A stretch of 64,000 nt of DNA from an uncultured Gemmatimonadales bacterium (GTDB lineage Bacteria; Gemmatimonadota; Gemmatimonadetes; Gemmatimonadales; GWC2-71-9). Both the position numbers and the translations under genes were made by a program. This document shows positions 57,129 to 63,861 of the stretch, piece after piece. The DNA lies in assembly GCA_963826065.1 (NCBI GenBank), contig CAWGVP010000003.1, positions 224,264 through 288,263 on the forward strand, written 5' to 3'. The notes beneath the pieces are model-generated. The model was not told where the DNA came from and searched no databases. It saw only the letters and a list, made by a program, of their open reading frames with translations. Numbering within the stretch: the stretch's first letter is position 1; each line of letters starts with the position of its first letter.

Positions 57129-57566
57129 CTACCGCCCGATGTCCTCGTTCCAGAGTTCCGGATGCTCGCGCACGAAGCCCGCCAGCAGGGCCGTGCAGCT
57201 GGGGTCATCGAGGACTTCCACCCGCACCCCGCGTGAGCGCAGCAGCTCCTCCTCGCCCCGAAAGGTGCTGTTTTCCCCAATGACGACCCGCCGAATACCG
57301 TAGAGAAGGATCGCCCCACTACACATTGCACAGGGGGAAAGCGTCGTGTACAGAGTGCTCGCCCGATACACAGGGGCCCCCAGCCGGCCGGCGCGCTCCA
57401 GCGCATCCATTTCGGCATGCAGAACGACGCTGCCATGCTGGACACGCCGATTGTGGCCCCGTCCGAGGACCCGACCAGAATGGATGAGGACCGAGCCGAT
57501 CGGGATGCCGCCCTCCGCGAGACCCTGCCTGGCTTCCTCCAATGCCACCTGGAGAAACTCATCCAT
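57129..57566 (-). CDS. Cytosine/nucleoside deaminase (Fcy1-like)
   Basis: HAE…LSPCAMC, VVIGEN, WNEDIG. Confidence 0.9.
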   Translation of the reverse strand: MDEFLQVALEEARQGLAEGGIPIGSVLIHSGRVLGRGHNRRVQHGSVVLHAEMDALERAGRLGAPVYRASTLYTTLSPCAMCSGAILLYGIRRVVIGENSTFRGEEELLRSRGVRVEVLDDPSCTALLAGFVREHPELWNEDIGR

Positions 57567-59354: not shown

Positions 59355-61055
59355 TTATGTCGGCGTCGCGAAATACTTCCGTCGCTTCGACTTGTAGCTG
59401 GCGGGATTGAAGTGTGAAGGGAGCCAGTCAGCGGTCTTCTCTTTCAGGTAGCCGGCCTCCGGGTCGGAGCGACCCTCGTCGGTGAGTATCCGAACGATGT
59501 AACGGGCGTAGTGGTGGTCGAAAACCCGCATGAACTCGCCGAAGTAGATGTCCGCTACGCGCTTATCTCCCCGGACGACGAGCATGTTCTCGTCGTTTAT
59601 GCGCTGGGATGGCTTGCTGAAGTTGGCTGAGCCGGTGACAACGAGTGGATCGTCACCCAGCGGATCCACGAGCATGAACTTGTTGTGGATATACCGGTTG
59701 CGATTCAGCGGGTTAGAGCGCTCCCGTAAAAAATTGGCCAGGGCCCCCTCGCCCAGATAGGACCCTGCGGCGAAGATTACATCGCGATCATGGCCAACCG
59801 ACTCCTCCACGCCCAGCGGATCGTCCTTCACCACGTACCGTAGCACGTTGTTATCCCGGCCCAGTACCTCCTGGAACACCTCGTCGATGTTGAAGGCAAA
59901 GGTCATACAGGAAATCTCCCTGGCCTCGCCCAGACGGTCGGCGTACCACTGGAGTGTCTCATTGCTTTCTTTGCCGTCGCGGGCCGAGAAGATCGGGCTG
60001 GCGGAGTTCTTGGGCGGCTTGCCGGCGGGGGTCGGCGTGGCAGTCTTGTTGGGAGCGCGCAGCTTGGTGGGCGTGAGATTGTCCGCCAGTCGCTGCCAGT
60101 AATCGAGGTACTTCGCGGCGACGTCCTTGTCCCACACAGTGTGGCCGACGTTGGAATGGCCAAAGATGCCGCCGCCGGAGATATTCGTGGATCCCGTCCA
60201 GACTGCAAGAGGCTTACCTGCCTTCAGCAGGACAATGAATTTGTTGTGGCGAATGCCTTCGCTGACGGTCCGCGGGATGACCGCATCGTATTCGTCGAGC
60301 CTCGCGGTTCTGATGGTCGCCTCGTTGCTCGCCTTATAGGTACTCTCCGCGTCGTACACGATCTTCACGTCCGCTCCGGCCTCGATCGCCTTAACGAAGG
60401 CGTTCGCTACAGGCTGGTACTCAAACTCGTAGAGGGCAGCGCGGAGCCCCATTCCGTCCTTCGCCAGCGCGATGAAACTCACGAGCGCTTCGAATAGCCC
60501 GCGAGAGAGCCACTTCATCTCCTTCGACCGGGGGTTGTCGGCGTCCGGCGCACGATTGCCGAACTCCCGGGCGTAGGCCTGCGAGCCGATGACGCCGCGA
60601 TTGAAGAACACGTCGTGCCGGATCGTGTCGCTGTTCTCGTCGGGCGGCTGACCGGCCTCGATCTCCGCGGTGATGTCGAGAGTGACTGCCGCGGCGTCGT
60701 CGAGTGTCGGGTGCTTCACCGTCCCGTAGAGGGGAACTATCCGAAACAAATACCGGGTGCCGGCCTTGGCGGTGTAATCGGCCCACAGGAAGCTTTGGAT
60801 CGGATGCTCGGCGGTCGAGACCAGGGTGCCGGGTGGGAGTCCCTTGTCCTTGTCCTTGAAACGTTTGATCGCACGCATCCAGTACCGCTCTACCGGCTTC
60901 CCCGCCCGGTCAAGCTCCGTTCGCTCGATGGCGTAACCCAGGAGGTCCGCCCGTGCAGGCTTCTTGCCGTTCAACGTATCCCATGCCAGAACCACCACAT
61001 ACGTTCCCGCGTAGCCCGCGGCTCTCAACTCTGTACCCTTCGCCGTCGCTCGCAT
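59355..61055 (-). CDS. Phospholipase D-like domain protein (two HxK motifs)
   Basis: HNKFIV…WTGSTN and HNKFMLVD…TGSANFS…NDEN. Confidence 0.88.
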   Translation of the reverse strand: MRATAKGTELRAAGYAGTYVVVLAWDTLNGKKPARADLLGYAIERTELDRAGKPVERYWMRAIKRFKDKDKGLPPGTLVSTAEHPIQSFLWADYTAKAGTRYLFRIVPLYGTVKHPTLDDAAAVTLDITAEIEAGQPPDENSDTIRHDVFFNRGVIGSQAYAREFGNRAPDADNPRSKEMKWLSRGLFEALVSFIALAKDGMGLRAALYEFEYQPVANAFVKAIEAGADVKIVYDAESTYKASNEATIRTARLDEYDAVIPRTVSEGIRHNKFIVLLKAGKPLAVWTGSTNISGGGIFGHSNVGHTVWDKDVAAKYLDYWQRLADNLTPTKLRAPNKTATPTPAGKPPKNSASPIFSARDGKESNETLQWYADRLGEAREISCMTFAFNIDEVFQEVLGRDNNVLRYVVKDDPLGVEESVGHDRDVIFAAGSYLGEGALANFLRERSNPLNRNRYIHNKFMLVDPLGDDPLVVTGSANFSKPSQRINDENMLVVRGDKRVADIYFGEFMRVFDHHYARYIVRILTDEGRSDPEAGYLKEKTADWLPSHFNPASYKSKRRKYFATPT

Positions 61056-61286: not shown

Positions 61287-61887
61287 TCAGTCACGGCGCG
61301 CGCCTGACTCCGACTGGGTCAGCGCCCGCTCGATGCGACGGTCGGGAATCAGCCACATGAGAGCGCCCGCCAGGTAGAGGAGAATCGAGATCACGGGGTG
61401 GAGAAAGGCGGCGACGATCGCGAGGGTATAGAACAACGGCGAGATCTTGCCCTTGAAGTCGGACCCCAGCGCAACAGCCAGCAGGGACCCTGGCCCTTCG
61501 GTGCGGAGGATCAGCCGCTGCAATATCAGGTACGCGATGGCGGCCATCAGAAGCACCACTCCGTAAAGCGCGGTGGGAGCCGCGTCGAGATGATTCTCGC
61601 CCATCCACGCGGTCACGAACGGAACCAGGGACAGCCAGAACAGCAGGTAGAGGTTGGCCCACAGCATCGCCCCCGTCACCCGGCTGGTGCAGTGCAGCAG
61701 ATGGTGATGGTTGTTCCAGTAGATCCCCAGGTAGACGAAGCTGAGGGCGTAGCTGAGAAAGACGGGCAGCAGCGGGCGCAAGGGCGGCCAGGTCGGTCTG
61801 GTGAGGCGGTCGCAGCTCGAGCACCATGATGGTGATGATGATCGCGAACACCGCGTCGCTGAACGCCTCCACTCGAGTCTTGCCCAT
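61287..61887 (-). pseudogene. TMEM175 (DUF1211) K+ channel family gene with +1 frameshift (real or sequencing error)
   Basis: RVEAFSDAVFAIIITIMVLEL in one frame and RPLLPVFLSY…YWNNHHH in another; one extra base at about 61780-61784. Confidence 0.85.
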
Positions 61888-61969: not shown

Positions 61970-62899
61970 ATGGACAAGCCTCGCATCTTCATCGGCTCGT
62001 CGGGGAAACAGGCTAAGCTGCTCCAGGCGCTGACCCGCGGCCTCCAGGACGTCGCGCATGTGGAGCCGTGGACTACCTCCCTGACTCCCGGCACCAGTAC
62101 GCTGGAGCGGCTGGTCGAGCTCGCCCACAAGGTGGACTTCGCCGCCTTCGTCTTCGCCCGTGACGACTGGACGACGGCCAGCCCGGCGGCCTCGACGCCC
62201 TCGGATACCGGACAGGATTCCCCTCGAGACAATGTCGTCTTCGAGGCGGGCCTGTTCGGCGGGGTGCTCGGCATGCGCCGCACCTTCATCCTCCACGCCC
62301 ACGGCTCCAAGCTGCCGACCGATCTCCTCGGGCTCATCTGCATCCGCTATGGCGACGCGTCGACACCCGCCGAGATGAAGGTGCTCAATCAGAAGCTCCG
62401 GCAGGCGATCGAGAGCGAGGGACGCCTCGTGCGCATCGAAGGCCACTGGTGGCAGTTCTCCCTGACGGCCTTGGGCCCGCGGGAGCCTTCGGCCGTGAGC
62501 CTCCTGCGCGTCTCGCGAGACCGCGACGGCGCGCTGGAGGTGAGCGGCCGGGCCTGGCAGGAGGACGGCGGCATCTCGGCGAGGTACTGGAGTGAGGCGA
62601 CGAAGGAGCGGCGGGAGCCTGCGGGCGTCTTCTATTGCTGGAAGGGAGAACGGCCCCGGGACCCGAACGCGCCGCAGCTGGAGGGCACCGGAGAGATCCG
62701 GACGGAGTCCGCCGATCGCGCGTCCGGCTACTGGATCACTCGGGCGAGCAACGATCCGGAGCTGAACGTGCGGACGGCCGGGGTGTACTGGCGGGCCGAG
62801 CCGGAGGACGTGGCGGTGATGGACGGACCCGACGATCGGAAGCGGGCCGAGATGCTCTCGGCGCGGCTGGAGCGCTGGAAGGCGATCGCCAGCGGGTAA
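61970..62899 (+). CDS. TIR-like (Cap12/Pycsar-type) domain fused to a beta-rich C-terminal domain
   Basis: PRIFIGSS, W, DFAAFVF..DD, PRDNVVFEAGLF, LPTDLLG; C-terminus of alternating beta strands. Confidence 0.85.
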   Translation: MDKPRIFIGSSGKQAKLLQALTRGLQDVAHVEPWTTSLTPGTSTLERLVELAHKVDFAAFVFARDDWTTASPAASTPSDTGQDSPRDNVVFEAGLFGGVLGMRRTFILHAHGSKLPTDLLGLICIRYGDASTPAEMKVLNQKLRQAIESEGRLVRIEGHWWQFSLTALGPREPSAVSLLRVSRDRDGALEVSGRAWQEDGGISARYWSEATKERREPAGVFYCWKGERPRDPNAPQLEGTGEIRTESADRASGYWITRASNDPELNVRTAGVYWRAEPEDVAVMDGPDDRKRAEMLSARLERWKAIASG

Positions 62900-62916: not shown

Positions 62917-63861
62917 CTACTGTGCTCTGGCGACGATCGGGCTCGGGAGAACGCTGCCGTCCAGGAAGCTGAACGTGGGGAACAGCGTCAGCGTTGCCCC
63001 TATCAGCGAGCCCCTGGCCTCGAACCGAAGCACCGAGCTCGGCGGCTCGTCGTCGGTGATGTGGACGAAGCCGTTCGCCTGCGTCAGCATCAGGTTGGTG
63101 GCCTCGAGCGACCTGCCGCCGACCGTGTCCCCCTCCACAATCACGACGTCATCGTAGAGCGCCGCCCACGCGCCGCCGGCGGACGACAGCGTGAACGACC
63201 GGTGAAAGCACCGGCTCGGCACTTCCGTATCGCAATGGTCGGGTTCCAGCCCGGCGAACGCCGTCCCGACGTAGCGGCCCGCGGGCGCCGGACTCACCGG
63301 CGGGCGGCCGCTGATGGTGAGGATGAACACCGAGGGCTCCAGCCGCAGGTATTCGGTCCGATCGGGCAGACCGCTGCTGCCAAAGGTGGGCATGCGCAGG
63401 GTGAGCGCGCCATCGACCAGCGTGCCCGCGAGCGGCAGAATGAACAGCTCTTCGGCGGTGAAGGGCTCGGTCACCGTGCTGAAATCGTACTCGATGGTGC
63501 TGTTGCGGATGCGCGCTGGAACGCGCACCTGCCAGGTGTCGGTAACCCCGTCTTCCAATGTGACGTCGGCGGCAAGCACCAGCTCGGGGATCGATCCCGC
63601 GCTGTCGAGCTGTGCCGTAAGGCTCCTGAGCCCGACGTCGCACTCCCTCTGCTCCACCGGGACGCCATCCTCGTACCGCGACGTCGAGGCGAAGCATGCG
63701 ATCCGGCTCGTGCTGCCGTCGTCGGCCGCGACGAGCTGGTATTGCCTGGGCTCATCGTCGGACGGCTCGGTGCCGCAGCCGGCGGCGTGCAGAAGCACGA
63801 TGAGGCTCGCGACGGGCCACCGGAGTCGGGTTGCCGGCTTGGGCTCGGCGGCTGTAGTCAT
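62917..63861 (-). CDS. Hypothetical lipoprotein
   Basis: Signal peptide ending AAGC; beta-rich body. Confidence 0.6.
   Translation of the reverse strand: MTTAAEPKPATRLRWPVASLIVLLHAAGCGTEPSDDEPRQYQLVAADDGSTSRIACFASTSRYEDGVPVEQRECDVGLRSLTAQLDSAGSIPELVLAADVTLEDGVTDTWQVRVPARIRNSTIEYDFSTVTEPFTAEELFILPLAGTLVDGALTLRMPTFGSSGLPDRTEYLRLEPSVFILTISGRPPVSPAPAGRYVGTAFAGLEPDHCDTEVPSRCFHRSFTLSSAGGAWAALYDDVVIVEGDTVGGRSLEATNLMLTQANGFVHITDDEPPSSVLRFEARGSLIGATLTLFPTFSFLDGSVLPSPIVARAQ

Follow-up and report, generated by a model that had tools for sequence, protein, structure and literature searches.

The known TIR effectors with fused sensors adjoin an enzyme that makes their signal; PycTIR, for example, carries an N-terminal domain that binds cyclic nucleotide monophosphates (cNMP) and has PycC as its partner. 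In one case, a Haloferax TIR-SAVED protein was taken experimentally out of its operon, which belongs to CBASS, a group of anti-phage systems that signal through cyclic oligonucleotides, and reads host c-di-AMP (10.1101/2025.06.19.660554). On the sensor side, a fusion to two membrane helices is described as obligate for barrels of the S-2TM-beta family (PMC12657218), 2TM-beta barrels are assembled by tRNA-derived 2',3'-cyclic-phosphate uridine nucleotides, and 2TM-beta genes are found adjoining TIR genes (PMC13692257); in the literature consulted, barrels are joined to membrane helices or to PNP. Here we describe an orphan gene at positions 61970..62899 of a 64,000-nucleotide stretch (the window; contig CAWGVP010000003.1, assembly GCA_963826065.1) from an uncultured Gemmatimonadales bacterium, which encodes a TIR domain followed by a predicted beta-barrel. 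Its family (the TIR-barrel family) occurs in seven soil-bacterial phyla without an adjoining signal-making enzyme. The parts are familiar, whereas their pairing is undescribed: no description of a TIR-barrel fusion was found in the literature searched, supplements and subscription papers aside.

An intact gene for a TIR-barrel protein

The gene is organised as follows (window positions, all on the + strand):

61970..62899, +, intact 309-aa gene: Cap12-type TIR, linker helix, predicted eight-stranded beta-barrel and two C-terminal helices
61959..61964, +, Shine-Dalgarno-like GAGGGG, 5 nt ahead of the ATG, as read from the sequence
61982..62350, +, TIR domain, residues 5-127 (Pfam PF10137, CAP12-PCTIR_TIR)
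62243..62245, +, codon of Glu92, equivalent of E86 in Epilithonimonas lactis TIR-STING (alignment, hand-counted numbering)
62366..62425, +, predicted long linker helix between TIR and barrel, residues 133-152 (AlphaFold2 model)
62441..62794, +, predicted eight-stranded antiparallel beta-barrel, residues 158-275, a putative ligand sensor (model and conservation)
62801..62893, +, two predicted C-terminal helices, residues 278-308 (model), retained in distant relatives

This is a real gene and not a chance open reading frame (ORF), since the best 120 of at least 8000 scored candidates (E<=0.001, TIR-only matches included) are 76-94% identical over 95-100% of its length, and the ratio of nonsynonymous to synonymous substitution rates (dN/dS) is 0.18-0.29 in 10/10 pairs of TIR-barrel genes, which indicates purifying selection. 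Its GC content is 69.5% (68.8% genome-wide). No membrane segment was found in the protein by hydropathy, and no sigma-70 promoter was found at the gene. Contigs of relatives from RNA libraries span the gene but equally its neighbour, and DNA carry-over is possible there.

The TIR domain matches PF10137 with an E-value of 1.6e-21. The NCBIfam Cap12 model covers residues 3-148 only (78.5 bits against a cut-off of 450), and the PADLOC effector and PycTIR models also match the TIR part alone. The nearest solved structures by sequence are TIR-STING (9lmq and 7un8) and PycTIR (8jsj), in the TIR region only; the structural alignment to 9lmq and 7un8 is restricted to residues 2-156. Glu92 and Trp34 align with E86 and W34 of E. 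lactis TIR-STING, whose E86A mutant is inactive (PMC12421889). Because both residues match those of TIR-STING and are invariant (67/67 aligned members), it is likely that the TIR domain of the window protein hydrolyses NAD+. The phenylalanine of the BB loop is kept in 57/67 members and is leucine in 10/67, the window protein being in the leucine group.

For the rest of the protein, AlphaFold2 predicts exactly eight strands (residues 158-275) and then the two helices (278-308), with a pLDDT of 90.9 for the domain model, and this model has the compact eight-stranded barrel fold of the Cap15 / S-2TM-beta type. The alignment to Cap15 stops at residue 125 of the barrel domain, and the C-terminal helices have no counterpart in the Cap15 match. 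Conserved aromatic residues of the barrel are W160, W161, Y222, W224, W/F255 and Y273; in a by-eye alignment only, the last four lie on strands that match those of the Cap15 pocket tyrosines.

Likeness of sequence is harder to demonstrate. No Pfam family covers the barrel, and PF18153 (Cap15) has no match in the 67 members. Seven approaches in all gave no significant result; hhalign and hmmsearch, with a Cap15 profile of only eight Cap15-like proteins, gave nothing beyond shuffled controls, and the last profile comparison, made with clean alignment rows without frameshifts, had the same null outcome. Several motifs coincide with Cap15 strand by strand when compared by eye, and a strand-matrix test was ambiguous. 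Foldseek with the barrel alone returned no match at E<=0.001, the ESM Atlas gave barrel leads that are all sub-0.9, and the full-length model returned TIR-STING together with two-domain matches (e.g. EF-Tu) that we rejected as spurious. STING, SAVED and cNMP-binding folds are absent from the barrel search listings, which by itself does not exclude these folds. As the profile comparisons gave no significant match, the predicted model supports only that the barrel is shaped like Cap15, not that it is a Cap15 barrel.

A first-pass annotation, made from the letters alone, had read this gene as a Cap12-type TIR with its glutamate, joined to a C-terminal part of about eight beta strands. All motifs that it quoted are present in the 309-aa ORF, and the Pfam match, the alignment of Glu92 with the catalytic E86 and the AlphaFold2 model bear out both domains; the two end helices had gone unmentioned. 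Its idea of a Cap15-like receptor, to be checked by AlphaFold and Foldseek, holds for the predicted barrel and its shape, but homology to Cap15 has no significant score.

Size, spread and conservation of the family

Relatives are encoded in 115/160 candidate stretches of GTDB genomes, 80 of which were retained (65-82% identical to the window protein). The fusion is found in Gemmatimonadota, Acidobacteriota, Actinomycetota, Pseudomonadota, Myxococcota, Planctomycetota and Latescibacterota, and the closest copies to the window gene are in Gemmatimonadales. Among 40 members derived from these loci, the TIR domain has a mean identity of 80%, the barrel one of 73% and the final helices one of 58%. 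Presence is patchy, both in the phylum (10/301 genomes matched, eight of them strongly) and in the genus (6/18 other genomes). In a quick, shallow tree of 73 rows the phyla are intermingled (13 label changes; the minimum is 6), but its backbone is poorly resolved, so that horizontal spread of the gene is likely but not proven.

Some apparent variants were rejected. The best 120 of 1328 short matches, candidates for stand-alone barrels, resemble late-start or truncated calls of the TIR-barrel gene (lengths of 174 and 208 aa recur; one was read). Longer fusions (2/523 candidates) are both read-through or frameshift artefacts, and a 712-aa frame in locus L059 is an off-frame extension upstream of the gene.

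Distant forms of the barrel

A barrel profile search of 1.84 billion representatives gave 500 matches at E<=0.001; the 150 of these that were listed are mostly fragments or frameshifted members of the TIR-barrel family. Among 27 proteins scanned there are five divergent PF10137-barrel proteins, whose barrels are 30-39% identical. In the same identity range the barrel also occurs in other layouts: in P0353 and P0330 it comes after TIR_2 and a single predicted membrane helix, and in P0316, a protein of a Maribacter bin, it comes after two predicted membrane helices, as it does in the Cap15 controls. In P0311 the barrel follows an N-terminal piece without family assignment, which resembles the final part of an alpha/beta hydrolase. 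All these forms are uncommon (clusters of 1-2 members), and a metagenome scan with the 2TM-barrel protein gave one match, an ordinary member of the TIR-barrel family. Thirteen positions, among them W160, W161, Y222 and W224, do not vary over 11 clean distant barrels. We also observed a 51-member Atlas cluster of 328-aa TIR_2 proteins, which may be of the TIR_2-membrane-barrel type.

The barrel is thus a swappable, mobile module without a name, since it is found behind two membrane helices or behind TIR_2 and one helix. The 2TM-barrel form speaks for a relationship to Cap15-type sensors. In the single-helix forms the barrel would lie outside the cytoplasm, which would speak either for a ligand that occurs inside the cytoplasm as well as outside it, or against a cytoplasmic second messenger. 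2',3'-Cyclic nucleotides occur in the periplasm too.

Genomic context

Neighbour genes were called with a home-made codon model, and 150/151 immediate neighbours from 79 loci were searched against Pfam at E<=1e-8. CD-NTase, nucleotide cyclase, Thoeris and SAVED families were found in 0/150 of them. No family could be assigned to 43; the commonest is alpha/beta hydrolase (13 loci), and others are CBS, Usp, glyoxalase, DinB and DoxX. Same-strand neighbours within 60 bp occupy only 19 positions over 81 loci and are mostly differing proteins. Beyond the immediate neighbours, PADLOC matches at E<=1e-25 were found in 4/138 nearby genes, two of them generic kinases, in a count made without a background control. 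Searches of 72,556 plasmids, 50,697 phages and IMG/VR did not turn up the barrel, and no defence-island, plasmid or phage context was found for the gene. It is a true orphan.

In the window the gene is flanked by three genes on the opposite strand, in agreement with the first-pass annotation, which had seen no adjoining CD-NTase, PycC or Thoeris gene:

59355..61055, -, PLD-family gene, 566 aa, PLDc_2 in two stretches, weak NucT and DrmC matches
61291..61887, -, TMEM175-type potassium channel gene, frameshifted (residues 1-32 and 36-195 of an intact relative are in different frames)
62917..63861, -, unassigned 314-aa ORF, possible lipoprotein signal, no Pfam, NCBIfam or PADLOC match

The PLD-family gene lies in a stretch of lower GC (58-64%) and was rejected as a partner, having no nucleotide match in other TIR-barrel loci. 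The TMEM175 gene is either a pseudogene or an assembly error; TMEM175-related genes are also near the TIR-barrel gene in L006, L007, L012 and L015. In L002 and L011, homologues of the 314-aa ORF lie downstream of the TIR gene, a few kb away. Further upstream, the window encodes a 145-aa cytidine/deoxycytidylate deaminase family protein (57129-57566, - strand).

Several neighbours recur within clades. A nicotinamide phosphoribosyltransferase (NAMPT) gene is convergent and directly downstream in three Gammaproteobacteria of one clade (L066 9017-10441, L070 8923-10347, L077 1026-2450; - strand). In Actinomycetota, a fusion of TCAD9 with a phosphatase-like part (~780 aa), whose N-terminus resembles an isochorismatase, is convergent with the TIR gene (L068 8950-11310, L072 9056-11380, L063 1871-3325; - strand). 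Three Myxococcaceae that form one clade have, upstream and in the same orientation, a gene for a WD40 propeller protein of ~673 aa (L038 5851-7872, L056 5806-7824, L078 550-2574; + strand).

Cyclases in carrier genomes

The window genome is 93% complete and has one PF10137 gene. SMODS, DAC, mCpol, TIR_2 and ThsB have no match in it; a Cap15 search of it also gave no match, as in all control genomes. Its other contigs do carry three class III cyclase domains (unclassified), and the genome has nine GGDEF matches. Of the 80 carrier genomes 50 were surveyed, most of them selected for their long contigs (only carriers were included); SMODS is found in 4/50, mCpol in 1/50 and DAC in 31/50; PF18144 may overlook divergent CD-NTases. 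With the window genome added, a ThsB-like TIR is found weakly in 15/51 and GGDEF in 51/51. No dedicated immune cyclase tracks the TIR-barrel gene; only near-universal chemistry does.

A dedicated signal made in trans is therefore unlikely, and the signal is likely to come from general host or phage chemistry. The first-pass annotation had suggested a stand-alone TIR with its receptor, answering a signal made in trans or an unknown ligand, and had named orphan cyclases as one thing to look for. Its orphan TIR with a Cap15-shaped predicted barrel stands; the dedicated cyclase has lost ground with these counts.

Possible function and alternatives

We tentatively propose, with a little less than even confidence, that the protein is a one-gene, ligand-gated NADase acting as abortive anti-phage defence. 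A generic by-product of phage infection, small and probably nucleotide-like, would bind to the barrel; ligand-bound barrels would assemble into oligomers, in which the TIR domains would meet head to tail and switch on; NAD+ would then be drained and the infected cell arrested. Given the spread over seven phyla without a signal enzyme and at 65-82% identity, the ligand should be made by all carriers or by their phages. RNA-derived 2',3'-cyclic-phosphate nucleotides, the kind of ligand that the Cas13-linked 2TM-beta barrel has, are the first candidate, followed by c-di-GMP. A cyclase-free ligand is plausible because 2TM-beta barrels (PMC13692257) and TIR-SAVED (10.1101/2025.06.19.660554) provide precedents.

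A ligand-gated NADase might also lower NAD+ in general stress or dormancy of slow-growing soil bacteria, without being anti-phage. The stress and accessory neighbours listed above (alpha/beta hydrolases in 13/79 loci, CBS, Usp, glyoxalase, DinB, DoxX), the lack of defence-island or mobile-element context, the host-like GC and a dN/dS of ~0.2 would suit such a role, and so would NAD-salvage-type genes just downstream in seven loci (NAMPT in L066, L070 and L077; isochorismatase-type in L063, L068, L071 and L072). But the NAMPT loci belong to a single clade and, of the four isochorismatase loci, three belong to a second one, so these genes amount to two or three events, and they are convergent, not co-transcribed. 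Every characterised PF10137 TIR protein among the PDB matches is an immune effector, and the patchy presence inside one genus is unlike that of a core stress regulator; we consider the stress role unlikely. We think it about equally doubtful that the barrel is no nucleotide sensor but a direct pattern receptor, with an avidin- or lipocalin-like pocket for a hydrophobic molecule or a dock for a phage protein: the 2TM-barrel form P0316 mirrors Cap15, and near-invariance over wide taxa suits a constant small ligand more than a variable phage protein.

That the protein answers the cyclic nucleotide of a dedicated immune cyclase (CD-NTase, mCpol, PycC or mini-DAC) elsewhere in the genome, as the first-pass annotation had it, is how Cap12 and PycTIR, the closest TIR relatives, operate, and the three class III domains in a genome 93% complete leave some room for it. 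Yet SMODS and mCpol are rare among the carriers, DAC is common but missing from the window genome, and the ThsB-like TIR is weak and likewise missing there, which makes this improbable. A role of the TIR domain as signal maker or scaffold (ThsB-like or adaptor), with the barrel as a structural or inhibitory cap, appears slightly more improbable still. TIR domains are able to make signals (PMC13692257), and the leucine in place of the BB-loop phenylalanine would fit; however, no conserved receptor gene is nearby, and it is the Cap12/PycTIR effector class that the domain matches, and neither ThsB nor TIR_2.

If the protein is a ligand-gated NADase, its small size, solubility and NADase read-out would make it a ready biosensor for its ligand in lysates, and success there would yield a sensor domain of a new kind and possibly a further class of danger signal in bacteria. 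Should the barrel prove related to Cap15, barrels of this type would be able to drive a soluble TIR enzyme, beyond membrane helices or a PNP domain. A wider and speculative view, which we hold to be rather unlikely, is that the barrel is a mobile immune-sensor domain for a universal damage signal (e.g. 2',3'-cyclic-phosphate nucleotides), working without a cyclase, in the cytoplasm in its TIR-barrel and 2TM-barrel forms and outside the cytoplasm in its TIR_2-membrane-barrel form; the TIR-barrel protein would then be a damage receptor and not a second-messenger effector, and among the commonest solitary NAD-depleting alarms of soil bacteria.

Comparison with known systems

Cap12 / TIR-STING of CBASS (9lmq, 7un8) shares with the window protein the N-terminal PF10137 TIR with W34 and the catalytic Glu, a length of ~310 aa and a C-terminal sensor. 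Its sensor, however, is STING, whereas that of the window protein is a predicted all-beta barrel, and Cap12 has a CD-NTase in its operon while the TIR-barrel gene has none beside it. PycTIR of Pycsar (8jsj) has the same TIR class, but the domain order is reversed in the window protein, in which no cNMP-binding domain was found and only the TIR part matches PycTIR models. The S-2TM-beta barrels (CBASS Cap15, Panoptes OptE, PanDA PanE and the Cas13-linked 2TM-beta) have membrane damage as their output, in contrast to a soluble TIR; the window protein has two extra C-terminal helices, no N-terminal membrane helices and no cyclase or Cas13 partner.

Panoptes and PanDA have an adjacent mCpol or minimal DAC, neither of which was found among the TIR-barrel neighbours or in the window genome. 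(In a separate observation on plasmid pSBAL11701 of Shewanella baltica, L084 921-1324, a 148-codon gene with the annotation diadenylate cyclase comes after a Cap15-like gene, a PanDA-like layout.) Thoeris combines a ThsB-type TIR (PF08937) with ThsA, whereas the window TIR is PF10137 and no ThsA family was found among the neighbours. E. coli has single-protein TIR systems (TIR-II, V, VI and IX; PMC11350192) that are likewise one-gene TIR defence; they were compared by description only, and the word 'barrel' is absent from the main text of that paper, its supplements aside. The stand-alone Haloferax TIR-SAVED (10.1101/2025.06.19.660554) is likewise a TIR NADase with a fused sensor, which can dispense with its cyclase through a host nucleotide, but it uses a SAVED sensor, whereas the TIR-barrel family is naturally solitary and the window host has no DAC. 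By membership criteria the window protein is outside CBASS, Pycsar, Panoptes and Thoeris, although it would work like TIR-STING or TIR-SAVED.
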